A stretch of 64,000 nt of DNA, from positions 1,469 through 65,468 of the forward strand of contig JACPKF010000002.1 in NCBI GenBank assembly GCA_016187125.1, written 5' to 3'. The notes beneath the pieces are model-generated. The model was given only the letters and a program-made list of their open reading frames with translations, did no database searches and was not told the DNA's origin. The translations under genes and the position numbers were made by a program. This document shows, in pieces, positions 12,936 to 36,159 of the stretch (the first letter of the stretch is position 1; each line of letters opens with the position of its first letter). Origin of the DNA: Candidatus Saccharimonadota bacterium. Lineage in GTDB: Bacteria; Patescibacteriota; Saccharimonadia; Saccharimonadales; UBA10212.

Positions 12936-13134
12936 TTTCCACTTTTATCTAACTTTTGTCCACGTTTTTACAGATGAGCGGGCCGGCTGTGTACAACTTT
13001 TCCCTTCTGGGCGTTGGCTGGCTGGGTAGTATAGTAGTTTAGGCATAAGCTGTGGAAAAGCTCGCAATGATCAGCTATATTAAGAACTGCATTGTAAACA
13101 ACCAGGAAGAGTTGAAAGAGGGTTTTAGTCCACA
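12936..13134. other. candidate oriC part 1: DnaA-box cluster upstream of dnaA
   Basis: Boxes close to TTWTNCACA are TTTTCCACT (12936), TTGTACACA (rc of 12988..12996), a perfect TTTTCCACA (rc of 13051..13059) and TAGTCCACA (13126..13134). Confidence 0.55.
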
Positions 13135-14519
13135 TGCAGGAAAATACACTGTGGCAGGCTGTGCTAGGCGAGATTGAGCTTAGTGTTAGTAGAGGCAACT
13201 ATGTAACGTGGTTCAAAAATACCCAACTTATTCGCTATAAAGATGATGTTGCTGTGGTAGGTGTGCCAAACATTTTTGTTAAAAATCAGCTAGAGCGTAA
13301 ATTTAATGACTTAGTAGTTAATATACTTGCCAAAAATGGTATCCAGCCCTCAAGAGTCGAATACAAAATTCACTCCGGCATTGCGCCAACCACCAAACAC
13401 AACGACGAGGGTATTCTGAAAAACCCAGGCGCTATAACAGGTTTATCAGAGGTAAGCACAGGCCCTAAGTTGAGAATAGCTAATGTTACTCACTCTTACC
13501 GCCAAGGTTTAAACGACCGTTATAGTTTCGAGAATTTTGTTGTTGGCGCTGGTAATGAACTGGCCTACGCTGCTTGCCAAGCAATTGCCGGCAGCCCCGG
13601 TACTCGGTACAACCCTCTGTTCATATATGGAGGTGTAGGGATCGGTAAAACTCATTTAATTCAAGCTGTCGGCAGCGCTATTTTGGCAGCCAAACCAAAC
13701 GCTCGCATTATTTACGCTTCAACAGAACAATTTGTCCAAGAATTTGTGGATGCTCTGCGCTTTAAAAAAAATACTACTGATTTTGCTGGATTTTACCGCG
13801 GCGCCGACGTCTTAATTGTTGATGATGTACAGTTTTTGGCAGGCAAAGAAAGAGTTCAGGAAGAATTTTTTCATACTTTCAATGCTCTTTATCAAGCCAA
13901 CAAGCAAATTATTCTAACCAGCGACAAACCACCCAAGGAGATCCCAACCCTAGAGGAACGACTTAGATCGCGCTTTGCCTGGGGTATGTCTATAGATATG
14001 CAAACTCCGGATTTTGAAACCCGTTGCGCCATCCTGCAAAGTAAAGCTGCGATTCAAAACATAAATTTATCCCAGGCCGTAACTGAGCTTTTGGCAACCC
14101 ATATCCACAGTAATATTCGTGAACTAGAGGGAGCTCTAAACCAACTGTTGGCTTACTGCGAAATGAGAGGTGTCGAGCCAGATATTCAGGTTGCAACCGC
14201 CATGTTTGAGAATGTAAAAAACCGGCCAAAACACATTAACGCTCGCCAAATTATTGAAAGAACTGCTAAACATTTTCATGTTTCTATGGAGGATATTTTA
14301 GGACCAAAGCGAGATAAAGATATAGTAGTCCCCCGTCAAATTGCCATGTATATGCTCAGGTGTGAGTTGCATTTGTCTTTTCCCAAAATTGCTCACGAGC
14401 TTGGCCGCAAAGACCACACCACCGCCATTCACTCTATTAATAAGATCGAGAAGGAAACCGGTTTAGACGGCCCCATCAAGCAATATGTCAGTGAGTTGAA
14501 GGAGAAATTATATGTTTAA
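13134..14519 (+). CDS. dnaA: chromosomal replication initiator protein DnaA
   Basis: Walker A GGVGIGKTHL, then VDDVQFL, and a C-terminal DNA-binding helix region (HTTAIHSINKIE). Confidence 0.95.
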   Translation: MQENTLWQAVLGEIELSVSRGNYVTWFKNTQLIRYKDDVAVVGVPNIFVKNQLERKFNDLVVNILAKNGIQPSRVEYKIHSGIAPTTKHNDEGILKNPGAITGLSEVSTGPKLRIANVTHSYRQGLNDRYSFENFVVGAGNELAYAACQAIAGSPGTRYNPLFIYGGVGIGKTHLIQAVGSAILAAKPNARIIYASTEQFVQEFVDALRFKKNTTDFAGFYRGADVLIVDDVQFLAGKERVQEEFFHTFNALYQANKQIILTSDKPPKEIPTLEERLRSRFAWGMSIDMQTPDFETRCAILQSKAAIQNINLSQAVTELLATHIHSNIRELEGALNQLLAYCEMRGVEPDIQVATAMFENVKNRPKHINARQIIERTAKHFHVSMEDILGPKRDKDIVVPRQIAMYMLRCELHLSFPKIAHELGRKDHTTAIHSINKIEKETGLDGPIKQYVSELKEKLYV

Positions 14520-14839
14520 TGGCTGTGTACAAGGATTGTTTATGTTTGGTAAAAAACTAGCACAACTAATAGGTTTATGCACGCTGTACACAGTTTTGGG
14601 GTTGGCTGTTAATAAACTGGGGTTTTTTATACGCCAATTAATAACAGTTTATACATTGTTAGTTGAGTTTTATACACCTAAACAGTTTGGGTTTTTAAGT
14701 TGTTTAGCTAGGGTTTTTGCACACTTTCCACAAAACCTATATCTACAACTAAATAAAAGATTTGTATTAATAGACCCACTTAAAACCCTAGCTATCTTCC
14801 AACCTTCAAACAATCGTAATACAAACGGACTGTAAAGGA
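14520..14839. other. candidate oriC part 2: dense DnaA-box cluster plus AT-rich stretch between dnaA and dnaN
   Basis: Boxes are TTGTACACA (rc of 14524..14532), TTATGCACG (14575), TTATACATT (14649), TTATACACC (14669), TTTTGCACA (14715) and CTTTCCACA (14724). An AT-rich run lies around 14750-14775. Confidence 0.6.
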
Positions 14840-15931
14840 ATGAAGCTACAAACTACCCAAGAAAACCTAGCTAAAGCCCTAAACACGGTTGCTAAAGTTG
14901 CTACCACTCGTAACACACTACCAATTCTGGCTAACGTCCTTCTTAAAACAACCAACAATAGATTAAGTATTAGTGCTACTAATTTGGATATTGCCATAAC
15001 CCACACTATTGGTTCAAAAATCGAAAAAACTGGCTCAATTACTGTCCCAGCCCGCTTAATGCAAGATTTTATCTCAAGCCTTCCAGGAGGGGTGCTGCAA
15101 TTAAAACAAGACGACAATAAACTCCACATAACCACCGAAAAATACAACTCCACCATAAATGGAATAAGCGCTGAGGATTTCCCTGTAATGCCAGCCATTA
15201 AAGGTGGTGTAAATTGGAGAATGCCGGCAAGTGAGCTTAGAAAGGGTCTACAAAAAGTAGTACTAGCTGCTAGTAATGATGATGCCCGTCCTATCCTAAC
15301 GGGTGTCTATTTCCATAACCAACCCAACTCGGTCATGGTGGTCGCCACGGATAGTTACAGACTTGCCGAGTACAAACTATCCAAACAAAAGGCGCCAGTA
15401 AACTTTTTAGTGCCATCCACAGCAGCCAGCGACCTCCTAAGAATTATCAGCGATTCTAACCTAGAAGTGTTGATTACCCACGATGAACAACAGGTGCTTT
15501 TTCAATCCGGTGACATAACCTTAGTGGCTCGCTTGATTGAAGGCAATTATCCCGATTATCGTAAACTCATACCGGCTAAGTTTGCGACTGTGGCCAAGCT
15601 TCGCCGTGAAGATTTCATTAATATTGCTAAAGTATCGGCTTTATTCGCCCGCGAAAGCGCCGGCAGTATAACAATTAAAGTCGACGAAAATGACAAAAAA
15701 GTCAGTATTAACGCTGTAGCTTCCCAACTTGGGGAAAACACTGCCACCGCCGATGCCGAAGTTAGGGGCTCTGGTGAAGTAACGCTAAACTCTCGTTATT
15801 TAGTTGAAGCCCTAAACGCCTTTTTTGGCGAGGAGATCGAGCTTTGTTTCAATGGCAAACTAGAACCCTGTATTTTGCGCAGTAGCGACGACGTAAACTA
15901 TTTACACCTAATTATGCCCCTGCGGAGCTGA
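14840..15931 (+). CDS. dnaN: DNA polymerase III beta sliding clamp
   Basis: 363 aa, typical N-terminus (MKLQTTQENLAKALNTV...TLPILANVLL), dnaA-dnaN-recF synteny. Confidence 0.9.
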   Translation: MKLQTTQENLAKALNTVAKVATTRNTLPILANVLLKTTNNRLSISATNLDIAITHTIGSKIEKTGSITVPARLMQDFISSLPGGVLQLKQDDNKLHITTEKYNSTINGISAEDFPVMPAIKGGVNWRMPASELRKGLQKVVLAASNDDARPILTGVYFHNQPNSVMVVATDSYRLAEYKLSKQKAPVNFLVPSTAASDLLRIISDSNLEVLITHDEQQVLFQSGDITLVARLIEGNYPDYRKLIPAKFATVAKLRREDFINIAKVSALFARESAGSITIKVDENDKKVSINAVASQLGENTATADAEVRGSGEVTLNSRYLVEALNAFFGEEIELCFNGKLEPCILRSSDDVNYLHLIMPLRS

Positions 15932-16015
15932 AAGCTCAGCAGCCCCTAGTTACTAGTCATTAGTCTATGAGATAGTAGTTAAGAAACTAAACTAATCACA
16001 GGAGGATAGAGACTA

Positions 16016-17074
16016 ATGATCGAAAATATTCGCTTGCAAAATTTTCGATCATACCACGATGGTTCTTTTGAGTTTGATAAAGGTGTAAATATCGTGGTGG
16101 GCCCCAATGGCAGCGGCAAAACCAATCTTTTAGAAGCCGTGCTGGTTTTAGCAACCGGCAGTTCATTTAGAGCAAAAGACGCGGAGCTTATTGGGTTTGG
16201 CGGATCTTGGGCTCGACTCGATGGCTGGTTCGGACACAGCCAAAGGACGCTTAAAATTATCTTGCAGGGGACCAGCTTGCAAAAAAGCTTTGTAATTGAT
16301 GAAAAGCCATACCGACGCTTAAGCTTGGAACGTAGCCTGCCGGTCGTTTTGTTTGAGCCAAATGACTTACAGCTTTTAGGCCATGGGCCGCAAAGACGCC
16401 GCGATTATTTTGATGATATCTTGCAGCGCACCCAGGCTGGTTATAAATCACTAAACGTCAAATACTACCGGGCTCTGGTTCAGCGCAATGCTCTCCTTAA
16501 ACAACCAGCCGCCGCGGCAGCTCAGCAGATGTTTGCTTGGAATATTCGCTTAAGCGAACTCGGCGCCCAAATTGCCAAGACTCGCCGTCAACTTATCGGC
16601 GATATTAACAAAACTATTGGCGAGACATATAGTAAAATTGCTCACCAAAAAACGGCCGTGAACCTTGTTTATAAATCGCCTTTTAGTGACGCCAATTATT
16701 CCAGTAAACTGCTCTTAAAACTGGAGGCTTCCGCCACACTAGACCTTCAGCGTGGCTTTACGTCGTACGGTCCGCACCGTGAAGACGTCATTATTTACTT
16801 GAGCGATCAAGTTGCTAGTTCTATGGCTTCGCGCGGTGAAACCAGAAGCCTGCTGCTAGCCCTAAAAATATTCGAGTTGCAGTTGTTGCAAAAAGTTCAT
16901 GAGCAAAAACCGATTTTCCTATTGGATGATGTGTTTTCTGAACTTGACGCCGCCCGTCGCCAACACTTAGTCAAGCACCTCAAAGGTTATCAATCGATCA
17001 TTACTACCACCGACGCCGACGCTGTCTTAGAGTACTTCGCCGGCAAGCATAACCTTATACCGTTACAAAAGTAG
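16016..17074 (+). CDS. recF: DNA replication and repair protein RecF
   Basis: Walker A GPNGSGKTNLLEA, signature region SRGETRSLLLALK and Walker B LLDDVFSELD. Confidence 0.9.
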   Translation: MIENIRLQNFRSYHDGSFEFDKGVNIVVGPNGSGKTNLLEAVLVLATGSSFRAKDAELIGFGGSWARLDGWFGHSQRTLKIILQGTSLQKSFVIDEKPYRRLSLERSLPVVLFEPNDLQLLGHGPQRRRDYFDDILQRTQAGYKSLNVKYYRALVQRNALLKQPAAAAAQQMFAWNIRLSELGAQIAKTRRQLIGDINKTIGETYSKIAHQKTAVNLVYKSPFSDANYSSKLLLKLEASATLDLQRGFTSYGPHREDVIIYLSDQVASSMASRGETRSLLLALKIFELQLLQKVHEQKPIFLLDDVFSELDAARRQHLVKHLKGYQSIITTTDADAVLEYFAGKHNLIPLQK

Positions 17075-17075
17075 C

Positions 17076-18686
17076 CTAGCTATCTTTACCCCAAAAGAAA
17101 TTGAGATTGAGGCGCAAATCTTTCAAAAATACTACATTATCTGAGGGTATATTTTTTGATTTAAGATAAATCTTGGCCTCATCAATTCTCTTTTCGACTT
17201 CCTTGCTTTGTAAGCCTGGATTGGCAAAAAGCGGGTCTTTTATATCACCGGTGGTAGCGACAAAATAGACTTTATCTCCTAAGACGTCGAGTGTGTAATC
17301 GCTGGCTACATAGGGCAGATTACCAAGGACAGCTTGGTTATCCGCCGGCTGGCTAAGGTCTATTTTATAAAGTATTAAATTGAGGTCCAATAACGGGCTG
17401 ACAGCGAAAGTCTGCCCGCCTTGACCGCTATTTGCTCTGGTTGTTACGAATAAAGTATCACCGTTTTTCTCTAACCCTTCGTAGTCTAAAATCGCATTTG
17501 AAAAGACCATACTACTTGACTCGTTTTTAATGTCGAGTCTCTCCACGCCTTTATTGACGTCAAATGTTAAAAGTGTGTTATTGTTTTGCCAAAAGAATTT
17601 AGTGGGCCGCTTAACCACAAAGTCTGTAACTAGTTTTTTGCTAACAATATTGTAGATTCGCAAGCTGCCTTTATTGGTAACTAAACCGATTTTTTCATTA
17701 TCGGGGGAGGCTGTCATATAATTGATGGCTAAATCATTGACTTTAAAATTTATGGCCGGTCCTTCCTGATTTGAAACAGCATTAAAAGGAGTAATCGCCA
17801 AGTTATTAGAAGATTTACCTTTTCTTTTAGCCGGTATTTCTGACGAGGCTTCTTCAACGCTCGATATCGGGCCCTTATATAGGTAAAGGTTTTTGCCCGT
17901 GAAACTGGCTATCGGTCCGTTATCGCCAAAGCTATAGGAGTCACTCTTAACATCTAACTTAACAGGGTTAGCCTCGGTGTCTTTTAAGTAATAAAAATCT
18001 TTACTATCGAAATAAACTAGGCCGCTTTTATCGGCGCTACCTACTAATATAAACAGTTCACCAGCTGATGTATTATTGGACAAGCTGCGGATGTTATTAG
18101 TAACAGGATCGTAAATGGCTGCAACTGGTCCTATGAGGGATGTTTGGGTACCTATATATTTGTTATCGTAAACGACCATTGGGCTAAACGGTGCCGGTAA
18201 TATATGTAGAGAATTTTGTACAAAGGGAATATTGGGTAAATTACGGTGAAGCTCTACGGTAGTCTGCTGGCTTCCTTCATTCATGGTATAAATAACTCCT
18301 TTTGCTTCGGCGTGCAGCAAGCGGGTGTTGTTAGCTATTTTTTGGGCTTTTGCTTGACGGGCTAGACTGGGTTTAAAGCTGGTGGTCTTAAGCCATCCAG
18401 AGGACTCTAAATGGTATCTATAAATATCAGAACCCTTCGTGAAAGTGATAATTAATTTACCACTCCGGACAATCTGGGGGTTTTTCCTAATTAGTGTTTC
18501 TTTAGCACTGGCTTCTTCTCCCTTCTGAATTGTTACTTTGTCCCAGTTGGCTATATCAGGTATTGATAGCCGACCGTGTGTGGCCACAAAGATAGTAATA
18601 AGAACAATCAAAGTTAGTAGACCTACTAAAGCCAAACGCCGCGCTAGCCGGCCGTTTATTATTCTGACAATATCTCCTCTGCTCAT
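17076..18686 (-). CDS. membrane-anchored beta-rich protein, last gene of the T4SS-like operon (function unknown)
   Basis: 536 aa with one N-terminal TM segment (LALVGLLTLIVLITIFVAT). The remainder is repetitive and beta-strand-like, possibly a propeller. Its stop lies 1 nt from the convergent recF stop. Confidence 0.6.
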   Translation of the reverse strand: MSRGDIVRIINGRLARRLALVGLLTLIVLITIFVATHGRLSIPDIANWDKVTIQKGEEASAKETLIRKNPQIVRSGKLIITFTKGSDIYRYHLESSGWLKTTSFKPSLARQAKAQKIANNTRLLHAEAKGVIYTMNEGSQQTTVELHRNLPNIPFVQNSLHILPAPFSPMVVYDNKYIGTQTSLIGPVAAIYDPVTNNIRSLSNNTSAGELFILVGSADKSGLVYFDSKDFYYLKDTEANPVKLDVKSDSYSFGDNGPIASFTGKNLYLYKGPISSVEEASSEIPAKRKGKSSNNLAITPFNAVSNQEGPAINFKVNDLAINYMTASPDNEKIGLVTNKGSLRIYNIVSKKLVTDFVVKRPTKFFWQNNNTLLTFDVNKGVERLDIKNESSSMVFSNAILDYEGLEKNGDTLFVTTRANSGQGGQTFAVSPLLDLNLILYKIDLSQPADNQAVLGNLPYVASDYTLDVLGDKVYFVATTGDIKDPLFANPGLQSKEVEKRIDEAKIYLKSKNIPSDNVVFLKDLRLNLNFFWGKDS

Positions 18687-18716: not shown

Positions 18717-20099
18717 TTATAATTGATTTTCCCCACATCTATTATTCATCGGCAAAGGATCCCAGTGCCATGATTCCGCGGAATATTGCTTGAAGCCAAA
18801 CTTTTCGGCATTCTCATAAAGCCATACCCACTCCTTGCTACTCCTATCGGTTATTCTCCCGGAGCAGCTGGTAGTATTGGAGCCTTTGATATATGTGTTG
18901 CCGCCAAAATCTATGGCTACCCCAAGTTGATGCGGTGATTGGCCCGGGCGGGCACAATAATCACCATCGCCAGTGCCACCGCAAGAATTAGCCAGCCTGA
19001 AAGAACTGGTCGCCAAAAAATTCATTCCTGCCGCCTTAGCCGCTTCGCCTAAAGCAAACCAGGCTCCAGACACACGGGAATTAACCGTTACGCCGCCGCT
19101 AATTTGGGTACCAGAGACATCATTACCAACGCCAGGGATGTTGGGTATTTGGCAAAGTCGTATTTTAAGATCCCCCTGATCTTTTTTAAATGTTCCGGTG
19201 TATTGGCTAGTTACAACACCCAAGTCTTTTGTTCCAGTCGCACAGGCTACAGAATCTGAACTCAAACCTATGTCGCCGACAATTTGTGAACTATCGCCCG
19301 ATGTTGTTGTACCGCCACCACATAAAGCTCCATCTCCCGTACCTCCAGTCGGGGAGCCTACCGGCGGTACATTAAATTGAATCTGAGAAGAAGGCGTAAG
19401 AATTTTTGCATCAGCATTGAAATTGATAATTTCTTGAACTATTGTTCCCACTGTTTGGGCATAGTCAGGAGCAGTTGCATACCCCCCTGCGGCTACGGCA
19501 GTAATAAACTGGATAGGATTGTTTGAGTACTGGAACGCTGATGAATAGTTAGAGTTTGTACGTAAGAAGTTTGAGTGGTCATTAAAACTTTCTTGAGCCG
19601 AAGCATAAACCCTGAATTTGGCTTGAACACGCACTGAGCTTCCATTAATTACTTCAGTCGTCCACAATAACTGTGTGGGGCCAGTCCAGCTACTGCTAGC
19701 TTTGATTCCAAAGAAGTTATTGCCAGGTGCGCTATCGCCAAAAGCTGACTCGACAATAGCTTGAGCTTGCGTCACCTCCCATGGGACACCCGATTGTATC
19801 GCATCATTATAAGCCATCTGCCCATAGGCTTTTACAAAGGCGGCTACTCGTTCGCTTGGCGATAGATTGCTAGGTATACTGGTAGATCCGCCAGGCGAAC
19901 TATTAGCACCACAGGCTTGTAGTGTTTCTTCTGTATTGAAATAATAAATTCCAGATTGGAAAACTTTTTTTTGAGCATCCGACAGGGCACTTACCGGAAC
20001 AGGAAATAGAACAATTAAAATCCCGACTCCGTACAACAACTTTGTTAAAATTCTAGCAGTCTTTTTCCCGGCACTTATATAAGAGAGTTCAGCGGTCAA
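18717..20099 (-). CDS. bifunctional peptidoglycan hydrolase: N-acetylglucosaminidase/muramidase-like domain plus M15 (VanY-like, LAS) peptidase domain
   Basis: The N-terminal half has AQAIVESAFGDSAPGNNFFGIKAS...FRVYAS...DHSNFL (glucosaminidase family). The C-terminal half has SPHQLGVAIDF and ESWHWD (SxHxxGxAxD / ExxH zinc peptidase). An N-terminal TM or signal segment is present. Confidence 0.7.
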   Translation of the reverse strand: MTAELSYISAGKKTARILTKLLYGVGILIVLFPVPVSALSDAQKKVFQSGIYYFNTEETLQACGANSSPGGSTSIPSNLSPSERVAAFVKAYGQMAYNDAIQSGVPWEVTQAQAIVESAFGDSAPGNNFFGIKASSSWTGPTQLLWTTEVINGSSVRVQAKFRVYASAQESFNDHSNFLRTNSNYSSAFQYSNNPIQFITAVAAGGYATAPDYAQTVGTIVQEIINFNADAKILTPSSQIQFNVPPVGSPTGGTGDGALCGGGTTTSGDSSQIVGDIGLSSDSVACATGTKDLGVVTSQYTGTFKKDQGDLKIRLCQIPNIPGVGNDVSGTQISGGVTVNSRVSGAWFALGEAAKAAGMNFLATSSFRLANSCGGTGDGDYCARPGQSPHQLGVAIDFGGNTYIKGSNTTSCSGRITDRSSKEWVWLYENAEKFGFKQYSAESWHWDPLPMNNRCGENQL

Positions 20100-20100
20100 T

Positions 20101-23100
20101 TTAATGTCCTCCTATGGAATAGTGGTAGTGGCCAGAGTTGCTACAGGTTTCTCCGGTTAGATCGGAAATATTATACTTTGTGCCGATTTGATCTGCTGAA
20201 AAGGCGTTAAATGGACAGCCAAAATCAACAGCCTTACCTTGATAATGATTTGATGTTATTTCTCCGTGGCACTGGCCGGCAAGGGCGTTAATTTGGATGT
20301 CTTGGACTTGGCTGAGCTCTTGGATAAATGCCAGTAGGTTGGTGCTTAAAGCAACCACGCTAACAGGAGCTTGGGCGCCACGCCCGCTGATCCCGCAGCT
20401 AGAAGTAGTATGGGCGAGCTGTCCGTTGGCTGTCTGTTGAATATTTTGCTCTGGTGTTGAACCGTCAGTTATATCTGAGCTACTAAGCACATTAAATTTA
20501 ATGTGCCCGGCCTTTGCTGAATTTAGTATTTGTTGGGCTAGTTGAGTAGCAGTCCCTGATGGAGTTGTACTGGGAGCTGTTGTCGAGCCAGAGCCTTGGA
20601 AATAAGTCTTCAGCTCGGCGATTATATTAATAATTGATTGTTGGTTGGAGCTGAAACTGTTGCCAATACACCAGCTTTTGGGATTTGGAATAAGACATTC
20701 ATTGACAACTTCTTTATCGACGAAGAAAAAGCCAGTTGCCGAGTCGCGTAACAGCAGAGACTTTTGCAGATCACCTGAGGAGTTAACTGCTTTATCATAT
20801 TCAGGATCACCTTGGGGATGGCCGGAAGCAGTACTTACCTGCCCCAAAATATCTTTTAGGTTGCTGCCTGGATGCAATTCCTGAGCTTTGGCAATAACTT
20901 CTGAAGCGGAAGGATTGGGTACTTGTACGGCAGCAAGACCAACTTGCCAGGCATAGCCAGGGGGACAAACATCAGTAAAGTTAATATGCGTATTGCCGCT
21001 GCCAGTACCACAGTTTGAATAGCCAATCGGGTTGTCGAGGCTTAGTACGCCTTCGCGCAGCGACCACCATGTACCGTTGGCGGCCATGGTAGCGTTTGCA
21101 TCAGCGCTACCACCTAGGTTTGGTACCACGTTTTCGGCTATATATTTTATCCACTTAGTTTGAGTGGCGTCTAGTTGTTGGCCACCCAAGCTTGTAAGAG
21201 GCGGAGCTGAAACAGAAGGGGTCGTGGAAGGCGCCGTACCAGTTGAGCCAGAGGTTTGGCCAAAACCGACTTGGGTACAAGAATCTTCGTCACCTTCCCA
21301 ACAGGCCATAGCATCCGCGAGGCGCGAATCAGCAACAAATAACATAATTCTATGCCAGTTTTCGCTACCATCGTCGCAACTAGCACTAGTGTAATCGCTT
21401 GAGCCAGGATTGACGTCGTCTTTAGCTATTACACTCCAGACACCGGAATCCTTGCTGATATCAACACCAAAGCAGCTTTTCGCACGGCTTATATAACTAC
21501 TATCTGCAGCTAAAAGCTTAGCTACCTCTTCACCATTGGCATACGGGTTTTCATATTTAGGGTCTTCGGCTAAACTCTGCGGAATGCCATAACGTGCAAA
21601 TCCCCAGTCATAAGGCTGTGGCTCAGCGTGAGTCAATGGTGTAAAGAGCTTGGAGGCTGTCGAGAATATACTACCGAAATTTGTAAACACAGAGCCCAGC
21701 TTAGCTATATTCTGCTGGATACTTGGGCTGTAGCCATCCACTACCTTAGATGCCAACGAACGGTAGTCATGAACATCGAATAATTTGCTGGCCAGACTTT
21801 TCGAATTGAAATCTTGCTGATCAGCCAACCTTTGCTGGCTGTCAAGCATAGCGCTCTCCGAATCACTTAGCTCAACGCCGCCAGAACTACGAGCGACTAT
21901 ATTACCCAACTCCCGGCCACTATACGCCAGTATGTTGCCGCCTAACGGGCCGCTAAGGGTTTCTGGAATCACTGCTTTATCTTCTAATAAAGGCGCTAAT
22001 TGCTGGTGAAGAACAAACAGTACGGTAGCAGTTGCCGCCAAAGCGGCGCCTTGCTGAGCCGCATATAAGCCCCAGCTGCCACCGAAGGTAAAGGCTCCTG
22101 CTGCAAGCAGTACTATACTGGCAACGCCTTGTACAATTAGCCCAGGAGTGCTGCAAAGGAAGCCGGTAGCATCAACCCCACTAACTTTTATTTGAACCTC
22201 GTTTCTTATCTTATCGGCAGTTGTACTATTGGAAAAAGCTGCCCCGATGCCGGTGGGTAAATCAGGCCCCGTCGGGTTAGCCGTACCAGCAGTGGCTTGG
22301 AGTGCCTTAGCTTGCCATATTGATTGGCCATTTTCATCAATAAGACTATTAGCCACCGCTCCGAGTTCAGTCGACGTGAAACCTCCCTGGCCCGACTGGC
22401 CTTGCGAACCCACTGCTATTTTGTCTGTGGCGTTTACTACCCCGGGTAGGACAATTACGCCTCGGTTGACGGTTACGGCGTCGTCCGCAAGTCCCCTAAC
22501 TTCACACAGCAAAGCCGACGCAGCCAAGGCGGTCGATGCTCCTATTGCTGCTACTTTACCTTTATTCGATTGTAGAAAACCTTTTACTTTTGCCCGGGCT
22601 CCGGAAACTTTTTGTGCGCCGGGCTCTTGTAGTTTCGCTTGGCGTTCCCTCTCAGCCTTAGCAGCATCGGCTGCCGAAAACTGGGCGCTTACTTTGGCTT
22701 TAACACGGTTAGACAGCGGCGAAAATAGCTTTGGTAAACCAAAAGCCGTTCTCACAAACCTAGTTTGCATCGCAGAGGTTATTGCTCCGTCACCCAGTTT
22801 TCCAATCGAAGTCTTAACCAGCATTTTTGTAAAATTCATCCCCTTTACGCTAGTGGCGTCAAGTTTTATGCTCCAGCGATCAGAGTCTACTTGGGTTAAT
22901 ATGCTAGCATCCTTGATCTCAAAATCACTCAATAATCTCTCCCTTAAGGTTAAGTTGCGTATCCCCTTATATTCATTTTTGGACGTATCAATGATAAGCT
23001 CATTCGGTACCCCAAAAGAGTTTTTCCTAAATTCAAAGCCCAGGTCCCTCAATTGCGACAGTGTGCCTCGGTAAATCCTACTCCCAACTAGATTAAGGCG

Positions 23101-23751
23101 GGTTTCGCCAATATCGCCGCTGCGGGCGTAGCGGAATAAACCTTTATATCTGGTTGAGGAAGTTTGTTGATTGCCAAAAAAATTTTTACCTAAAATCTGC
23201 GACAGATGAATAAGCTGCAGCGGTCCCTGAAGAATGGAAAAACCAAAAAATAGGCCAATGATGGTGCCGGTAATCCCACCAATACCCAAAATTTTCCGTC
23301 GGCGGGTACGGAAAAGATTTTTAAGTCTTGAAGTCTCAGATGAGGCTCCCGGACTTGGCTTATATAAACTACGTTCAGCCTTTGGAACCGCGGCGCCGGT
23401 TTTATCTGCCGCGCCTTTGTCGGTTGAGTCTTCCTTGTCTTTGAGATTTTGGGCGGCTTGTTTGGGACTTTCCGGGCTGCCCGACTGGCCACGATTCCAA
23501 GGTCTCCACGGTGTCTTCTGAGTAGGGTGTTGGTCGGTGGCAGTTTCGGGTACATTGCCCGGTCGGTCATAGGTCGGCCTTTTTTCCTCTACGGGCTGCT
23601 TGGAGCTATCTTGCAGATGATCTTTGCTTCTTGGTGTTGTTTGCCCTTGGCCGTCAATGGCTTTTAGGTCTGGGCGGTAGCCGGTACCAGAAGACTGTTC
23701 ACCGGGTTCATTATAGTCATCCGGCTCTAATTTTGGTGCTGGCTGTGCCAT
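20101..23751 (-). CDS. 1216-aa polytopic membrane protein with a C-terminal LAS-type (M15-like) zinc-peptidase motif; T4SS-associated
   Basis: Disordered N-terminus, TM segments near aa 165 and aa 540-600, and Thr/Pro/Ser linkers. The extreme C-terminus carries SNHYQGKAVDF (HxxGxAxD) and SGHYHYS. It is tightly packed between the VirB4 and hydrolase genes. Confidence 0.6.
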   Translation of the reverse strand: MAQPAPKLEPDDYNEPGEQSSGTGYRPDLKAIDGQGQTTPRSKDHLQDSSKQPVEEKRPTYDRPGNVPETATDQHPTQKTPWRPWNRGQSGSPESPKQAAQNLKDKEDSTDKGAADKTGAAVPKAERSLYKPSPGASSETSRLKNLFRTRRRKILGIGGITGTIIGLFFGFSILQGPLQLIHLSQILGKNFFGNQQTSSTRYKGLFRYARSGDIGETRLNLVGSRIYRGTLSQLRDLGFEFRKNSFGVPNELIIDTSKNEYKGIRNLTLRERLLSDFEIKDASILTQVDSDRWSIKLDATSVKGMNFTKMLVKTSIGKLGDGAITSAMQTRFVRTAFGLPKLFSPLSNRVKAKVSAQFSAADAAKAERERQAKLQEPGAQKVSGARAKVKGFLQSNKGKVAAIGASTALAASALLCEVRGLADDAVTVNRGVIVLPGVVNATDKIAVGSQGQSGQGGFTSTELGAVANSLIDENGQSIWQAKALQATAGTANPTGPDLPTGIGAAFSNSTTADKIRNEVQIKVSGVDATGFLCSTPGLIVQGVASIVLLAAGAFTFGGSWGLYAAQQGAALAATATVLFVLHQQLAPLLEDKAVIPETLSGPLGGNILAYSGRELGNIVARSSGGVELSDSESAMLDSQQRLADQQDFNSKSLASKLFDVHDYRSLASKVVDGYSPSIQQNIAKLGSVFTNFGSIFSTASKLFTPLTHAEPQPYDWGFARYGIPQSLAEDPKYENPYANGEEVAKLLAADSSYISRAKSCFGVDISKDSGVWSVIAKDDVNPGSSDYTSASCDDGSENWHRIMLFVADSRLADAMACWEGDEDSCTQVGFGQTSGSTGTAPSTTPSVSAPPLTSLGGQQLDATQTKWIKYIAENVVPNLGGSADANATMAANGTWWSLREGVLSLDNPIGYSNCGTGSGNTHINFTDVCPPGYAWQVGLAAVQVPNPSASEVIAKAQELHPGSNLKDILGQVSTASGHPQGDPEYDKAVNSSGDLQKSLLLRDSATGFFFVDKEVVNECLIPNPKSWCIGNSFSSNQQSIINIIAELKTYFQGSGSTTAPSTTPSGTATQLAQQILNSAKAGHIKFNVLSSSDITDGSTPEQNIQQTANGQLAHTTSSCGISGRGAQAPVSVVALSTNLLAFIQELSQVQDIQINALAGQCHGEITSNHYQGKAVDFGCPFNAFSADQIGTKYNISDLTGETCSNSGHYHYSIGGH

Positions 23752-23757
23752 TGGGGA

Positions 23758-25713
23758 CTAAACTCCGCCGGGCTGTTGTGACGGAGGGCTGGCTTGTTGC
23801 ACCGCGGACGCTGGCTGGTCTTGCGTCTCAAGTTCATCCTCCTCACCGGTCTCAGTCTCATCTATATCCTCATTTTCCAGGACCTCCTCCGCTTCGGGAT
23901 TTGGGCTAATTAAGCTGGCTTCGGTGGGACTGGCGATCACCTGAATGTGCACGTGATTCTGGCCGGCAAAAAACAGCCCTTGGCCAATCGGAAACTGGCT
24001 TAAGCGTTTTTTTTCTTCCTCAGTCAGCTTAAACACATCGCTCAATACATCGACGGCGCTAACGCTTTGTTTGAGTAAAATCTGGACACTGGCGTTGGCC
24101 ACAATGGCCCGTCCCATGCGCGAGGCCATGAAATCTTCCACGTCTTGAGTCACGGTCGTCAGGCCCAAATTATATTTGCGGGCCCGCTTGGCCAGACTAA
24201 ACATAAAGTTGGCGCTATCTTCAAAACGCATCAACTGCCAGGCTTCGTCAACGATCAGCAGCCGCCGCTTTTTATCGGCTTTGGTTTTATTCCATATAAA
24301 ATTCAGCACGATGTACATGGCCACCGGTCGCAGTTCGTCTTCCAGATCCCGGATGTTGAAAACAACCATGGAGTTATTGACGTTAATGTTGCTGGGCTGG
24401 CTAAAAATACCGGCAAAAGTTCCGGATGTGTACTTGCGCAGGCGCTGGGCCAGCTGCGGTCCGGTGCTGCCCATGTGCAGCAATGTGTCATATAAGTCAT
24501 GAATGGTTGGCGGCATTGAGCCGTGAGTCAAAGGATCATTGGTGATTCCGGCTTTAGCATAAGTTTCAATCAGTGCCGCGTCCAAATCGGCTTCTTCAAC
24601 CGGATTAAGAGCCGGCGCCATGGTCAGTCCGGTTTGCAGCATCTGAGCCTGAGCGCCGCCCATCATCAACCGGAACAAACCGTGCAAAGTAATGAGATTG
24701 CTTCTCAGGGCATTATCGGCTTCTTCGTCATCCACCACTTGCGGCAAGTCAAAGGGATTAATGCGCGTCGAGCTATTTAAGCTGAGTCGGACATAAGCGC
24801 CACCAACGGCATCGCACATTTTTTGATATTCGTTTTCCGGATCAATAATAAAAATTTCGGTGCCAAACATCATGCTGCGCAGAGCTTCTAGCTTAACCAT
24901 AAAGCTCTTGCCGGCGCCGGATTTGGCAAAGACTACGCTGTTGCCGTTTTCCAAAGAGAAACGGTCAAAAATAACCAAGCCCGAATTATGCATATTAATG
25001 CCGTATAAAATGCCGTTTTCCTGAGTCAGGTCAGCTGAAGTGAAAGGAAAGCTGGTGGACAGGGCGGCGGTATTCATGTTGCGGTAAATCTGCAGCTGAT
25101 CAACAAACTGCGGGATGACGCTGTTTAAGCCCTGTTCTTGTTGAGCCGTGGCCGCCTTGGAATAAACCAGCTGCTGTCCCAGCATCGATTCCACTTTATG
25201 GCTAATGAACTCTAATTCCTCATCTGAACCGGCGTAAATTGTAAAATAAAAGCCAAAGCGGAAGAAGCGTTCTTCGCCGACCTGCAGCTTATCGCGCATT
25301 TCTTCAGCGTCTTGGATAGCAGCTTCTTTGCCTGGGTCTCTAACCCGGCCTTTTTCGCTGTCAATTTGGATGCCGGCCTGCAGCTGAGAAACTTTCTTGC
25401 GCAGATTATTTAATACTACCTGGCTGTCTACCGGTTGAACGATCATAGACAGATCTATAACTTCGTCCAAATTGACCATGCCGGAAAGCCAGCCGGTATA
25501 AACTTGGCGAGGATAGCCATAAACATAATAAGTTCGGGCAAAGCGGGTGCCGATTCTGAAATTGTTACCGTTAAATTCCAGCGAGCTGGGGGCGATAAAA
25601 TCGCGCAGGGCGGTAATGCCTTTTTGAAAAGCCGTGCTAACCTCTTGAGCTTCGACTGCTTGCTGCCCAGCTACCGGATCGTCCGGTTTTTTCTTGCCAA
25701 AACCTAGCATCAA
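23758..25713 (-). CDS. VirB4/TrsE/PrgJ-family T4SS ATPase (ATPase-bearing part)
   Basis: Walker A FAKSGAGKSFMVK and Walker B RRLLIVDEAWQLM. The N-terminal region DFIAPSSLEFNGNNFRIGTRFARTYYVYGYP is typical of Gram-positive VirB4 homologs. The ATG at 25710 behind a GGAGG is the likely start. Confidence 0.85.
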   Translation of the reverse strand: MMLGFGKKKPDDPVAGQQAVEAQEVSTAFQKGITALRDFIAPSSLEFNGNNFRIGTRFARTYYVYGYPRQVYTGWLSGMVNLDEVIDLSMIVQPVDSQVVLNNLRKKVSQLQAGIQIDSEKGRVRDPGKEAAIQDAEEMRDKLQVGEERFFRFGFYFTIYAGSDEELEFISHKVESMLGQQLVYSKAATAQQEQGLNSVIPQFVDQLQIYRNMNTAALSTSFPFTSADLTQENGILYGINMHNSGLVIFDRFSLENGNSVVFAKSGAGKSFMVKLEALRSMMFGTEIFIIDPENEYQKMCDAVGGAYVRLSLNSSTRINPFDLPQVVDDEEADNALRSNLITLHGLFRLMMGGAQAQMLQTGLTMAPALNPVEEADLDAALIETYAKAGITNDPLTHGSMPPTIHDLYDTLLHMGSTGPQLAQRLRKYTSGTFAGIFSQPSNINVNNSMVVFNIRDLEDELRPVAMYIVLNFIWNKTKADKKRRLLIVDEAWQLMRFEDSANFMFSLAKRARKYNLGLTTVTQDVEDFMASRMGRAIVANASVQILLKQSVSAVDVLSDVFKLTEEEKKRLSQFPIGQGLFFAGQNHVHIQVIASPTEASLISPNPEAEEVLENEDIDETETGEEDELETQDQPASAVQQASPPSQQPGGV

Positions 25714-25852: not shown

Positions 25853-26815
25853 TCATGACAAACCTTCCTTGCCAAAGTGCGGTTGGTGGGCATTACCCTT
25901 GCCTTTGGTTATAATCGGCACGTTCAAATCGCCGGCGTCGCCCAGTTGCTGATTGGCAGCGGTGTCGGGATTATAAGCCTCATAATAAAGCTCAATTAGC
26001 TCCTGCGTATCCAGCGGTATGCTATTGACTCCACACTGCAGCAGTCCCTGCATAACGGAATTTACCCGGTTGCGCAACTCTGTCTTGGCTTTTTCCAGCG
26101 TGCCTTCATCTATAACTACATGCGGTGTTTTGGTACCGCCTAGAAGTTCGGCCACTCCGGTAAAAAAGCCAGTACTTTGGCGAAGAGCCCGCCGGATATC
26201 GGCGTTGGCGTCGGGATAACCAATAACTATGTAAAAACGCTTATCCATGATGTTGGTACTCTGGGCAATTTGGGCTAAAAAATTAATGTAATCTTCCATA
26301 AGTACCCCCAGCAGCATGCTCTCTTGCTGCATACGTAGTTTGTCCAATTTGTCGAGGTAGGGGTCAAGATCTACCTTCTGAGAGCGCATGTATATCTGGA
26401 TCGGAAAATAAAGCGAATTCAAAAAGCCTTGGTAAGCAAATTCCACAGCTTCTCGTTCACTGGAATTCATCAGATCGAAGTTGATGGATTTACACATTAC
26501 TACTGCTCGGAAGGAACCGTCATTTAAAATAGCCAATCCGTCGCGGATTTCGGCGATTTGCAGAGTATTTTGAGTACTGTTCAGGTTGGCAACACCGGTC
26601 TTATCGGGCGTTTGCTTGGCTGGTATAACCTGGGGCGAGACCGCAGCCGCTGGCATTGGCGGCATTATCGGTTGAGTAACATTGTCAGTCGGCAGGGATT
26701 GCGGCGGGGGTTGGGCAGGCGCAGGTGCCGCTGGCAAAGGCGCAGCCGAAGAAGTTGGCGGGGGCTGACCACCCACGGTAGGGGTTATGATGTTCGGCTT
26801 TTGACTAGGATTCAT
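25853..26815 (-). CDS. proline-rich protein whose ordered part resembles the extreme N-terminal domain of Gram-positive VirB4 proteins (possible split VirB4 N-fragment)
   Basis: The first ~70 aa are Pro/Ala-rich and no TM segment is present. The remainder (IAEIRDGLAILNDGSFRAVVMCKSINFDLMNSSEREAVEFAYQGFLNSL...ELIELYYEAYNP) is recalled from memory as VirB4 N-domain-like and has not been verified. Confidence 0.45.
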   Translation of the reverse strand: MNPSQKPNIITPTVGGQPPPTSSAAPLPAAPAPAQPPPQSLPTDNVTQPIMPPMPAAAVSPQVIPAKQTPDKTGVANLNSTQNTLQIAEIRDGLAILNDGSFRAVVMCKSINFDLMNSSEREAVEFAYQGFLNSLYFPIQIYMRSQKVDLDPYLDKLDKLRMQQESMLLGVLMEDYINFLAQIAQSTNIMDKRFYIVIGYPDANADIRRALRQSTGFFTGVAELLGGTKTPHVVIDEGTLEKAKTELRNRVNSVMQGLLQCGVNSIPLDTQELIELYYEAYNPDTAANQQLGDAGDLNVPIITKGKGNAHQPHFGKEGLS

Positions 26816-27031: not shown

Positions 27032-27949
27032 TCAGTGCAAAGATATGACTACTTCGTTAGGACCGATCTGCTGCACGGCGTTTTTACGATTGGCTAATCT
27101 GGCAATCGAAGCCACACTTAAATCATTACCGCTTTGGGCTAGCTCCAGTTTATCAGCTCTAGCGGTAGCTGTCACGGGAGAAGAACTGGCCGAAGCTCCG
27201 GCTTGATTTTGGTCATTGCCATCAGCCGCCGCGGCGGTCGTTGAAGCCGAGTCAGCCGTAATAGTTGGCTCAACCGGCAAGGCCGCCTGAGTTCTGGCAG
27301 CCGAAATAGTATGAGAAATTTTTTTCCGGCGCTGATCATCTTGCTGCTGCATCAAACCGCTAAAATATTGGGCCGTCGGATTATTTTTCTCGTCCATGAT
27401 GTCATCGGCCGGATTTATATCTACGTCAATTGCCGCTTGGTTCAAGGTATTGGGGGCCACCAGGCGGTCGCTCATAGCTTCAAATGCCGGGTTGGGTTGA
27501 AGGTTCAGATTTTTTATAGCCCAACCCCGGCTATCCAGTGTCGCCGTTAAAGTCTGCAATCGGCTGCGAACCTCGGTCTCGCTGAGGCCCTTAGTGTGAA
27601 GCTTGGCGATTTTTTTAGGCGCTGTTATACTCACCAGTTTACTAATTCCGGTCTGATCCCAGAGGCGCTGGCGCGGTTTAACTAAAAAGCGTAGATGAGC
27701 CAGCAGCCAAACCTCCGTCGGCTGCTGCCGCCCTAAAGGCGATGCCAGTACGCCAAACAAGGCCATGGGAAGTACTAAAAGCAGTATCACCAGCCAGCGC
27801 CAGCTACCGACATCTGGGGCCAAAACTAGTCTAAAATCAATAAAAGCGCAAAGCCCGGCAATAACAGCGTAAATAAAGCCCTTTAGCGTCAAAGGTCCCA
27901 GGAGCTTATCTTCGGACTCAATATCTTGTATTACTTTATATACGGCCAT
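27032..27949 (-). CDS. PrgI-family (VirB3-like) T4SS membrane protein with a long C-terminal extension
   Basis: The N-terminus YKVIQDIESEDKLLGPLTLKGFIYAVIAGLCAF followed by two TM segments matches the PrgI family signature (..DI..EDK..GPLT.KQF.Y). Confidence 0.7.
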   Translation of the reverse strand: MAVYKVIQDIESEDKLLGPLTLKGFIYAVIAGLCAFIDFRLVLAPDVGSWRWLVILLLVLPMALFGVLASPLGRQQPTEVWLLAHLRFLVKPRQRLWDQTGISKLVSITAPKKIAKLHTKGLSETEVRSRLQTLTATLDSRGWAIKNLNLQPNPAFEAMSDRLVAPNTLNQAAIDVDINPADDIMDEKNNPTAQYFSGLMQQQDDQRRKKISHTISAARTQAALPVEPTITADSASTTAAAADGNDQNQAGASASSSPVTATARADKLELAQSGNDLSVASIARLANRKNAVQQIGPNEVVISLH

Positions 27950-28092: not shown

Positions 28093-28353
28093 TTATTTTC
28101 TATAAACTTCTCTGCGATGATCAACGGCCAATACGCTAATTTTTTTATTCCCGGCATCAAAGAGTATCCGGTAATTACCAACTCGCCACCTGTATTGCCC
28201 GCTGCGCTTATCGGTAAGCTTCGCAGCGTAACTTAGCGGGTTTGGTTGCGCTAGGAAAAACTTAATTTTCTCACCAATCCTGCTACGGACTACCGGGTTA
28301 AGTTTCTCTAAGTCTTTTCTAGCTGTTTCTTTGAATTCAATCTGCCAGTTCAC
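28093..28353 (-). CDS. type II toxin, RelE/ParE family
   Basis: 86 aa ending YRWRVGNYRILFDAGNKKISVLAVDHRREVY. It overlaps the upstream antitoxin gene by 4 nt. Confidence 0.8.
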   Translation of the reverse strand: MNWQIEFKETARKDLEKLNPVVRSRIGEKIKFFLAQPNPLSYAAKLTDKRSGQYRWRVGNYRILFDAGNKKISVLAVDHRREVYRK

Positions 28354-28628
28354 AGACCGTCGCCAAATACTTCTTCAAAACTGTATGTCTTAGTCTCGCG
28401 ACGGGCCCTGGCTATCTTTTTTATAAAACGGGGGTTCTGGCTGGTCAGAAAATCTTCTAATATGTCAGTATCCACTAAGGCAATATCTGGTTTCCCGCGG
28501 CGCTTAACAATCAGTACGTCGCCTGAAGACACATTGTTGAGTGCCTCGGCCATATTCTCGCGGAGTTTCGCGGAAGTTATTACTGTTGTAGTCATATCTT
28601 CTCCTTTTTGTACATCAATAGTGTACAT
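28350..28628 (-). CDS. type II antitoxin, Phd/YefM family
   Basis: Sequence TTTVITSAKLRENMAEALNNVSSGDVLIVKRRGKPDIALVD. The likely start is the internal Met (MTTTV). Confidence 0.75.
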   Translation of the reverse strand: MYTIDVQKGEDMTTTVITSAKLRENMAEALNNVSSGDVLIVKRRGKPDIALVDTDILEDFLTSQNPRFIKKIARARRETKTYSFEEVFGDGL

Positions 28629-28862: not shown

Positions 28863-29198
28863 TTAAACTAGGCCTAACAGCTGTGCCAGCCTGCGCCTGA
28901 CTTCGGCCATTATTTTGGTGCTGACTTTGCCAACTGAGCGATCAATAATAAACGCCTCAACGGTGTAAATTTTATCTGGTCTAATGTAGCTATTAATCCG
29001 TAGGCCGCCTTCAATAAAATCTGTGTTGCGCAGTGTGATAGCACTTTGAGAAGCCAAGTCTTTGCTGGTTATTTGGCAAATGATATAGTTGTCAAAATCA
29101 GCCAGGCCAATTATTAAGGCCGGTCTTTTTTTGTATTTTAGGTAGTTGGAGTATGGAAACTCAACCGCTACGACATCGCCTACTGCAAGTACGCCCAT
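28863..29198 (-). CDS. type II toxin, MazF/PemK family
   Basis: Motifs GDVVAVEFPYS...KKRPALIIG...ICQITSK are typical PemK/MazF sequences. Confidence 0.75.
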   Translation of the reverse strand: MGVLAVGDVVAVEFPYSNYLKYKKRPALIIGLADFDNYIICQITSKDLASQSAITLRNTDFIEGGLRINSYIRPDKIYTVEAFIIDRSVGKVSTKIMAEVRRRLAQLLGLV

Positions 29199-29437
29199 GC
29201 CGCATCTTCTTCAGGTGTATCCCAGTCTTTAGCTAAGGCTGAGTAGCCAGGCCCGTAAGCCTTGATCATAGCCATTTTTTTAGCCTTGCTGGCAGGTCTT
29301 TTTTTTGCAGGCTCGATAAAAATCTTGCCATTTTTTAGCTTAAGCTCTAGCTCGGTACCCAGGCCAGCTTCTTCAATCAAGACTTTTGGTATGCGCACAC
29401 CTCGGGAGTTGCCAATTTTTATCAGACTTGCTTTCAT
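29180..29437 (-). CDS. type II antitoxin, AbrB/MazE/SpoVT family
   Basis: LIKIGNSRGVRIPKVLIEEAGL forms a looped-hinge-helix motif. It overlaps the MazF-like gene. Confidence 0.75.
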   Translation of the reverse strand: MKASLIKIGNSRGVRIPKVLIEEAGLGTELELKLKNGKIFIEPAKKRPASKAKKMAMIKAYGPGYSALAKDWDTPEEDAAWAYLQ

Positions 29438-35889: not shown

Positions 35890-36159
35890 ATGAATGTACT
35901 TGCACAATTGATCAGCGGTGATAACTTACCTAAAACTTCAGACCAAAGTCTAAAGACCGGCCTGACTATTACCTTTTCAGTTATCGGCGCTGTCGGTTTT
36001 TTGTTCTTGGTCATTGCTGGTGTGCGCTACGTTTTTGCCCGCGGTGATACCAACAAACTTGCCGAAGCTAAGAATATGATTCAACATATCATAATCGGCT
36101 TAATTATTGCCGCCTTGGCAGCCTCAATTGTCGCTGTTGTGGTCAGCAGGGTCCAATGA
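35890..36159 (+). CDS. VirB2/TrbC-like T4SS pilin paralog 3 (short, no Cys domain)
   Basis: The two-TM core is AGVRYVFARGDTNKLAEAKNMIQHIIIGLII. Confidence 0.6.
   Translation: MNVLAQLISGDNLPKTSDQSLKTGLTITFSVIGAVGFLFLVIAGVRYVFARGDTNKLAEAKNMIQHIIIGLIIAALAASIVAVVVSRVQ

Follow-up and report, generated by a model that had tools for sequence, protein, structure and literature searches.

Introduction

The closest described counterpart of the gene pair reported here, two adjacent open reading frames (ORF1 and ORF2) next to virB4 in the type IV secretion operon of a Candidatus Saccharimonadota bacterium, is found in Southlakia epibionticum ML1, where the locus SEML1_0001–0019 encodes VirB4 (0008), a TrsD-like protein (0009) and PrgI (0010) (Wang et al. 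2023, PMC10633639). Downstream of virB4 lie SEML1_0007 (1113 amino acids), in which ECOD assigns residues 951–1105 to Hedgehog/DD-peptidase with a probability of 0.993 (PMC10633639, Table S2), and SEML1_0006 (643 amino acids), annotated with a PF01832 Glucosaminidase domain, a PF18013 phage-tail lysozyme domain (two lysozyme-like domains) and a cysteine protease (PMC10633639). Both genes were scored essential by transposon sequencing (PMC10633639, Tables S1 and S2), and both have been proposed to stand in for VirB1 (PMC12102498), the monoderm versions of which are presumed to open the cell wall locally for the channel (PMC12102498). According to the literature it is completely unknown what the Saccharibacteria secretion system does, and effector delivery is being discussed (PMC11665869).

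We analyzed a stretch of 64,000 nucleotides from assembly GCA_016187125.1 (contig JACPKF010000002.1, positions 1,469 to 65,468, forward strand), hereafter the window, in which ORF1 and ORF2 occupy the same position as the S. epibionticum pair. At both loci dnaA, dnaN and recF lie on one strand, with a hydrolase gene, a gene for a large membrane protein, virB4, a trsD-like gene and prgI on the other; in the window a gene for a 536-amino acid protein precedes ORF1 in this order. ORF2 shares with SEML1_0007 a C-terminal Hedgehog/DD-peptidase-like module, and ORF1 shares with SEML1_0006 the combination of PF01832 with a peptidase. The two pairs differ in that SEML1_0006 is composed of Glucosaminidase, Phage_lysozyme2 and a cysteine protease, whereas ORF1 joins Glucosaminidase to VanY, and in that SEML1_0007 has no reported counterpart of a 205-residue middle domain of ORF2. 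The S. epibionticum proteins were compared by position and published annotation; a protein of the same length and architecture as SEML1_0007 (P0079, 1113 amino acids) shows, the LAS module apart, only weak similarity to ORF2. Arrangements of this kind are already known, if only from supplementary annotation, and the pair in the window is a new domain combination. Two aspects are modestly novel, namely that modules are exchanged between the two genes in a cassette-like manner and that a confidently folded domain of ORF2 belongs to an unclassified family.

We consider it likely that ORF1 and ORF2 form a dedicated wall-cutting unit of the secretion system, one that parallels VirB1, PrgK and TraG in function without being homologous to them. 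ORF2 would be a membrane scaffold whose C-terminal part lies outside the cytoplasm and carries two modules on flexible Ser/Thr/Pro linkers, while ORF1, predicted to be exported through a Sec-type signal, joins a GH73 glycan-strand hydrolase to a zinc peptidase of VanY/M15B type. Between them, the two proteins would cleave glycan strands as well as stem peptides where the machine is located, and so make room in the wall for channel and pilus, a job that falls elsewhere to VirB1, PrgK and TraG of pIP501 and would here be done by unrelated domains.

Results and Discussion

The features of the locus are collected in Table 1. The analysis made use of tools that included Pfam, NCBIfam, PHROG, PDB sequence search, AlphaFold, Foldseek and profile–profile comparison. 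An earlier, sequence-only reading of the window had described two adjacent proteins linked to a secretion system, and this holds: genes matched by Pfam or NCBIfam as VirB4-like, TrsD-like and PrgI lie directly upstream of ORF2 on a common strand. ORF1, ORF2 and virB4 abut with gaps of 2–7 nucleotides, and since the TTG start codon of ORF1 lies 2 nucleotides past the ORF2 stop, ORF1 is probably translationally coupled to ORF2. In GenBank ORF2 is entered as hypothetical protein HYW35_02215 (MBI2588997.1) of Candidatus Saccharibacteria bacterium.

Table 1. Features of the window, with positions counted from its first nucleotide (pLDDT, predicted local distance difference test; HMM, hidden Markov model)
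Feature	Position	Strand	Basis or remark
ORF1, 460 amino acids	18717..20099	-	two-domain peptidoglycan hydrolase (predicted), predicted to be exported
Putative signal peptide or membrane anchor, ORF1 ~1-40	19980..20099	-	basic stretch (KK, R, K), hydrophobic run LLYGVGILIVLFPVPV, possible cleavage between VSA and LS
GH73 / FlgJ-type glucosaminidase, ORF1 94-224	19428..19820	-	Pfam PF01832, E 5.4e-26, 92.1 bits
VanY/M15B-type LAS peptidase module, ORF1 271-460, ~190 residues	18720..19289	-	Pfam PF02557
ORF2, 1216 amino acids	20101..23751	-	Saccharibacteria membrane-protein family, 3' of virB4; same gene order in 19 related loci
Conserved scaffold core, ORF2 ~150-828	21268..23304	-	hydropathy/charge, alignment A6, scaffold HMM
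Middle domain, candidate wall-active, ORF2 850-1054, 205 residues	20590..21204	-	AlphaFold pLDDT 97.4
Predicted Hedgehog/DD-peptidase-like LAS zinc peptidase module, ORF2 1066-1216	20104..20556	-	conservation, profile, structure model
VirB4-like ATPase	23758..25713	-	NCBIfam conju_CD1110 E 4.7e-107; Pfam P-loop_TraG
TrsD / TraC-like protein, resembling the VirB4 N-terminal part	25853..26815	-	NCBIfam TrsD E 8.6e-7
PrgI / VirB3-like protein	27032..27949	-	Pfam PF12666 E 8.7e-9
536-amino acid membrane-anchored protein	17076..18686	-	last gene of the operon before recF; place conserved, sequence not
dnaA, dnaN, recF	13134..17074	+	directly beside the secretion operon
Two type II toxin–antitoxin pairs, ParE/Phd-YefM and MazF/MazE	28093..28628, 28863..29437	-	between the PrgI gene and the 1702-amino acid ORF
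1702-amino acid ORF	29558..34666	-	upstream of the secretion core
Type IV secretion pilin genes	34915..35496, 36156..36626	+	PF18895
IS200-like (Y1) transposase gene	8292..8906	+	amid glycosyltransferase and sugar-nucleotide genes

ORF1 had been read as a glucosaminidase joined to a VanY/M15-like domain, and both assignments are borne out by Pfam matches above the curated thresholds (30.2 bits for PF01832 and 25 bits for PF02557). In the GH73 domain the catalytic glutamate, E117 in AQAIVES, aligns with that of AQAALES in the solved FlgJ structures 5dn4 and 2zyc, and the YATD-type motif is kept, with GGYATAPDYA of ORF1 aligning with GYATDPNYA of FlgJ. FlgJ structures are also the best sequence matches to ORF1 residues 86–226 (E 1.9e-19 to 5dn4), and searches of NCBIfam and PHROG return FlgJ-type muramidases and endolysin families (E 2e-45), respectively. 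The C-terminal GH73 domain of FlgJ is likewise a hydrolase dedicated to an envelope-spanning machine, the flagellar rod; FlgJ differs in serving another machine and in having its GH73 domain fused to a rod-capping domain, whereas that of ORF1 is fused to an M15B peptidase. The match to PF02557 covers ORF1 residues 381–446 and profile positions 57–127 of 132 (E 2e-9, 37.7 bits). Its motifs SPHQLGVAIDF (388–398) and ESWHWD (442–447) hold the key residues H390 and D397 (zinc-ligand motif S-x-H-x-x-G-x-A-x-D) and E442 and H445 (catalytic E-x-x-H), all of which ORF1 keeps. An alignment of seven sequences (A7) shows no variation in H, D and the final H, whereas E442 is replaced by Asp in one of them. 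At the N terminus the hydropathy of ORF1 peaks at residues 17–40, suggesting Sec export or an N-terminal membrane anchor, with the cleavage site of Table 1 equally a prediction.

A second, different LAS-type module had been placed at the C terminus of ORF2, and here too the claim stands. All four motif segments quoted in the sequence-only reading are present, the two of ORF2 being NHYQGKAVDF (residues 1168–1177) and GHYHYS (residues 1207–1212). From these, H1169 and D1176 make up an H-x6-D and H1208 and H1210 an H-x-H zinc-site motif. H, G, A, D, H and H are invariant in six aligned homologous tails, and H1169, G1172, D1176, H1208 and H1210 in a family alignment of 32 sequences. With all metal-binding and catalytic residues intact, the module is predicted to be a zinc peptidase. 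It is not a duplicate of the VanY module of ORF1, a possibility that was considered and rejected: profile–profile alignment of the two covers only the 14-residue zinc motif. Nor is the shared motif a matter of chance, as H..G.A.D[FIVLM] is expected 0.04 times in the six-frame ORFs of the window and was observed three times. The third occurrence (4140..4436, forward strand), antisense inside a glycosyltransferase gene, was dismissed as a chance match.

Searches with the LAS module or with ORF2 itself yielded no match in Pfam, NCBIfam or PHROG, even at lenient E-values, or among the PDB sequences. The search with domain HMMs that had been proposed matched Glucosaminidase and VanY in ORF1 and returned no Pfam or NCBIfam model for the LAS module of ORF2. 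As these direct searches came back empty, the LAS call is based on a profile of the family, on a structure model and on published work. In one profile search of the PDB all 23 matches were Hedgehog N-domains, aligned at the zinc-site strand; in another these accounted for 20 of the 22 matches, and the L-Ala-D-Glu peptidase of phage T5 was also found. With E-values of about 0.1–0.2 these matches are sub-significant, yet specific. The AlphaFold model (pLDDT 89) was compared with the PDB by Foldseek, and the first 20 matches, followed by five of the next seven, were LAS structures, among them Ihh/Shh, ChiX, VldE, the Streptomyces DD-peptidase 1lbu, LysECD7, Ply500, LdcB and MepA. The two further checks that the sequence-only reading had put forward went in its favor: the profile of the ORF2 module aligns with the zinc-site strand of Hedgehog N-domains, if sub-significantly, and the structure model retrieves LAS enzymes, if with modest scores.

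Both modules resemble the LAS enzymes (M15 peptidases such as the Streptomyces albus DD-peptidase 1lbu, ChiX 5opz, VldE 9flk, Ply500 2vo9, LdcB and VanY, and the Hedgehog N-domain) in their zinc site, H-x6-D followed by H-x-H in ORF2 or by E-x-x-H in ORF1, and in having LAS structures as top matches. Unlike the known members, the ORF2 module is too divergent for Pfam, NCBIfam and PHROG, and since no curated model matches it and only 14 columns align with the VanY profile, by sequence it is a separate, uncurated LAS subfamily. Its size was assessed by an exhaustive HMMER search of cluster representatives, a word-indexed homologue search with the LAS profile having added only five sequences, and amounts to 1738 representatives at E ≤ 1e-3 (629 at E ≤ 1e-10). 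Most top matches are proteins of 900–1150 amino acids with the module at the extreme C terminus. The module of the window is of a short subtype, without the insertion of about 40 residues that most family members have between the two motifs.

The sequence-only reading had named three cutters, the domains of which are there, and had missed a fourth candidate wall-active module, the middle domain of ORF2. Flanked by Ser/Thr/Pro linkers and confidently folded, this domain has no match in Pfam, NCBIfam, PHROG or the PDB sequences. Within it E900 (in WWSLREG), at a helix end just before a small β-sheet, is near-invariant (at least 90% of the sequences); two cysteine pairs do not vary at all, nor do Q936 and Q943 of WQVGLAAVQV. 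With a cut-off of E ≤ 0.01 the search yielded 134 homologues. Those with a named source belong to Myxococcota (Archangium, Myxococcaceae and Labilithrix) and Actinobacteria (Micromonospora and Streptomyces) and the rest are metagenome sequences. Named homologues are about 140–370 amino acids long, and of five that were inspected, four start with a signal or lipoprotein leader and one is truncated at the N terminus; fusion to SH3_3 occurs in 31 of 122 homologues. Foldseek gave no significant structural match: the top entries are a GH23 chitinase, g-type lysozyme, chitosanase and the autolysin Auto at E-values of about 1–6, with only the GH23 chitinase reaching a TM-score of 0.33–0.42, and a viral library gave scattered lysozyme-like matches at E ≥ 0.2. 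The topology of the model fits a lysozyme-like enzyme, in a likeness too weak for assignment. An SLT lytic transglycosylase, hinted at by WWSLREG and GLAAVQV, was considered and set aside, as Pfam lends it no support and the Foldseek match is weak (E about 1). We leave the domain unclassified; it is probably associated with the wall and could represent a new wall-active enzyme family.

The remainder of ORF2 is the scaffold, the HMM of which matches all 16 loci that were retrieved by a pattern scan of GTDB species representatives. Its most conserved motif is GPLQLIHLSQIL, its hydrophobic segments span residues 153–183, 398–418, 529–565 and 562–589, and four conserved cysteines lie within residues 760–825. 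The N-terminal 156 residues of ORF2 and the loop 179–398 contain 17% Lys+Arg and no cysteines, whereas past residue 419 Lys+Arg drops to 3–8% and all 12 cysteines are found, four in each of three C-terminal regions. Because these regions are poor in Lys+Arg and hold the cysteines, and homologues of the middle domain are secreted proteins, the C-terminal part of ORF2 is predicted to be extracytoplasmic. The scaffold was also considered as a VirB6/TrbL channel and rejected, there being no TrbL/VirB6, PrgH or other match to the scaffold in Pfam or NCBIfam and only three to four hydrophobic segments, where at least five are required. In S. epibionticum the VirB6-like assignments fall on other genes, SEML1_0011 and SEML1_0013 (PMC10633639).

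To see how the pair is composed elsewhere, the 16 GTDB loci (13 labeled Saccharibacteria or Saccharimonadales, two "bacterium" and one Parcubacteria) were supplemented with three metagenome contigs, giving 19 related loci. In every one a scaffold gene is followed by a wall-hydrolase gene, and virB4 precedes wherever the contig reaches upstream. Several loci have a gene of 390–530 amino acids with no or unknown annotation after the hydrolase, which in one far-reaching locus is followed by recF, dnaN and dnaA. As can be seen from Table 2, the ORF2 family keeps a membrane core of about 680 residues and exchanges its C-terminal tail, and the downstream gene exchanges its hydrolase domains as well. 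At the ORF1 position Phage_lysozyme2 is present in 15 of the 19 loci, with Amidase_2, Amidase_3, NlpC/P60, CHAP, M23, GDSL esterase, GH3 or (in L006) a LAS module as partners; L009 and L011 have SLT with CHAP/NlpC and L015 has Peptidase_C39_2, while Glucosaminidase occurs at this position only in L010, the window and SEML1_0006. Altogether the gene pair 3' of virB4 holds one to five recognized or candidate wall- or envelope-active domains, mostly three or four.

Table 2. C-terminal tails in the ORF2 family
Tail	Loci or proteins
Middle domain + LAS	window, L001
LAS	L005, P0004, P0005, P0010, P0011, P0079
Endonuclease/exonuclease/phosphatase + LAS	P0009 (L018 7001..10699)
VanY-type	L003, L010, L012, L015, P0008
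Middle domain + VanY-type	P0002
Amidase_2	L004, L013, P0006, P0007
BSP peptidase	L006
Beta-lactamase2 + M23	L014
Beta-lactamase2	L016
109 residues, no Pfam or local profile match	L002
None	L007, L008, L009, L011, P0012

Exchange appears also to have crossed the boundary between the two genes. With the tails of P0002 and P0008, the VanY module of ORF1 shares 65% and 59% identity, respectively, above the identity of their scaffolds to that of ORF2 (only 53% and 41%), and its HMM also matches the ORF2-family tails of L003, L010, L012 and L015. The module that in relatives ends the scaffold protein thus sits in the window on the other side of the ORF1/ORF2 boundary, and from the sequences appears to have moved over it. 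We can picture a cassette of the form "LAS – stop – start – signal peptide – GH73" that would have been inserted into a P0002-like ancestor, in the linker between middle domain and VanY; such a scenario is inference only. A conserved N-terminal core (here of about 680 residues) with exchanged C-terminal enzymatic tails is also the hallmark by which the ORF2 family resembles polymorphic toxins. Unlike in these, no immunity gene is adjacent, the operon encodes the carrier as one of its integral membrane proteins and not as a secreted substrate, and most tails are wall hydrolases and not toxins.

These data can be set against the hydrolases of known secretion systems. Monoderm VirB1-type proteins are normally multi-domain, with PrgK containing LytM, SLT and CHAP domains and TraG of pIP501 containing SLT and CHAP domains. 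The sequence-only reading had seen in the window more lytic capacity than a VirB1-type helper usually provides. This is not borne out, given that three or four domains are the rule in the 19 loci and that the SEML1 pair has been published. Like PrgK (pCF10), TraG (pIP501), TcpG and the CD419/TrsG profiles, the window pair is multi-domain, encoded in the operon and predicted to be exported or membrane-anchored, and combines a glycan cutter with peptidases. It differs in having neither SLT/GH23 nor CHAP, the cutter being of GH73 type and both peptidases LAS metallopeptidases, and in that a large polytopic scaffold carries one of the two sets of modules, where the monoderm proteins have a single-pass anchor.

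Several observations weigh against a wall-cutting unit of the machine. Four crossing segments would put the C terminus of ORF2 inside the cell, so that an outside location requires that the weak fourth segment (mean Kyte–Doolittle 0.64) does not cross or that the first is re-entrant. The Foldseek scores of the LAS model are modest (E about 0.1, probability up to 0.85, TM-score 0.33–0.48). Neither ORF1 nor ORF2 has a match to SLT/Transglycosylase (VirB1) in Pfam, and the likeness to VirB1 is functional only. Finally, some tails of the family are not obvious wall hydrolases (endonuclease/exonuclease/phosphatase, β-lactamase-like and BSP peptidase), which hints at roles beyond a hole in the cell's own wall.

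Such roles could include the host. In this alternative the modules, either exposed on the episymbiont or set free where it touches its host, would breach or digest the host wall, probably an actinobacterial one, allowing the pilus or channel to reach the host membrane or wall fragments to be harvested, with tails tuned to host wall chemistry. Compatible as it is with a wall-cutting unit dedicated to the machine, we hold host-directed action to be possible, with the balance somewhat against it. The exchange of tails between close relatives speaks for it, the middle domain being followed by LAS in the window and by VanY in P0002 (53% identical), as does the variety of tails, which runs from VanY and Amidase_2 to BSP peptidase, β-lactamase-like + M23 and endonuclease/exonuclease/phosphatase + LAS. 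The downstream gene varies too, often adding GDSL esterase, GH3 or M23, and the middle domain has its named relatives among secreted, SH3-fused proteins in Myxococcota and Actinobacteria. SEML1_0006 and SEML1_0007 are moreover essential during co-culture of S. epibionticum (PMC10633639), and the discussion of effector delivery for a system of completely unknown function (PMC11665869) leaves room for an action on the host. Against this, the ORF2 modules would be tethered to the episymbiont membrane by linkers of about 10–25 residues, which limits their reach. The sequence-only reading had advised a search for cognate immunity genes; no immunity or self-protection gene was found beside ORF1 or ORF2, and no small ORF lies between ORF2, ORF1 and the gene for the 536-amino acid protein. 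Shuffling of a similar kind occurs among monoderm conjugative VirB1-type hydrolases and, generally, among autolysins and endolysins, which also counts against a host-directed role.

One or both LAS modules might instead be non-catalytic and bind the wall, anchoring the machine in peptidoglycan. The trimmed ORF2 module, some 40 residues short of most relatives, and its modest structural matches would fit this, but a binding-only domain is expected to lose its catalytic residues, and the zinc ligands and catalytic His of ORF2 are invariant in the 32 sequences, as are H, D and H of the ORF1 VanY module in the seven of A7, with E442 kept or, once, Asp; we therefore consider a purely binding function very unlikely. 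Least probable of all, and in our view hardly credible, is that the two are housekeeping autolysins for growth or division that stand beside secretion genes by chance: GH73 and M15 enzymes are commonly autolysins, but the place directly 3' of virB4 is kept in every locus with upstream sequence, the scaffold family is found only beside secretion genes, and ORF1, ORF2 and virB4 abut almost without gaps.

The wall-cutting unit that we favor belongs to an operon that resembles the MPF-FATA class of monoderm type IV secretion systems. Since dnaA, dnaN and recF adjoin the operon, the secretion cluster is located at the replication origin, a position also reported from other Patescibacteria. The TrsD-like gene (320 amino acids) was also considered as the N terminus of a frameshifted or split VirB4 and this was rejected, a separate TrsD-like gene being normal in the secretion operons of Patescibacteria, as explained by Quinonero-Coronel et al. 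(PMC12102498). Similarity of the 536-amino acid protein to the genes at the same position in related loci was looked for and none was detectable. The protein itself gives only a weak β-propeller hint, and several related loci hold genes of 390–530 amino acids without Pfam annotation there. The two toxin–antitoxin pairs lie inside the secretion cluster and are absent from this place in L018 and L019. No Pfam or NCBIfam family matches the 1702-amino acid ORF; by position it may be the counterpart of the large VirB6-like/secretion-system proteins SEML1_0011 and SEML1_0013 of S. epibionticum. The PF18895 pilin genes, on the strand opposite to the operon, are probably the VirB2-like pilin array described for Saccharibacteria. 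Further away lies the transposase gene listed in Table 1.

Conclusion

The secretion system of Saccharibacteria is essential for epibiotic growth, and of all its parts the two hydrolase genes lend themselves best to enzymatic study. The domain map, the catalytic residues and the survey of domain swaps given here support experiments on the opening of the cell's own wall versus that of the host, for which S. epibionticum offers a genetically tractable organism. The middle domain of ORF2, confidently folded and with more than 130 homologues, is itself a candidate for a new family of wall-active proteins. Going further, and tentatively, as we think it rather unlikely in this full form, the ORF2 family might be a secretion-anchored carrier of exchangeable tails which, together with its equally modular neighbor, is tuned to the envelope chemistry of the host, breaches the host wall and helps set host range. 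If true, this would account for the need of the secretion system in epibiotic growth, and the 205-residue domain would be a new wall-hydrolase family that Saccharibacteria have in common with Myxococcota and Actinobacteria.

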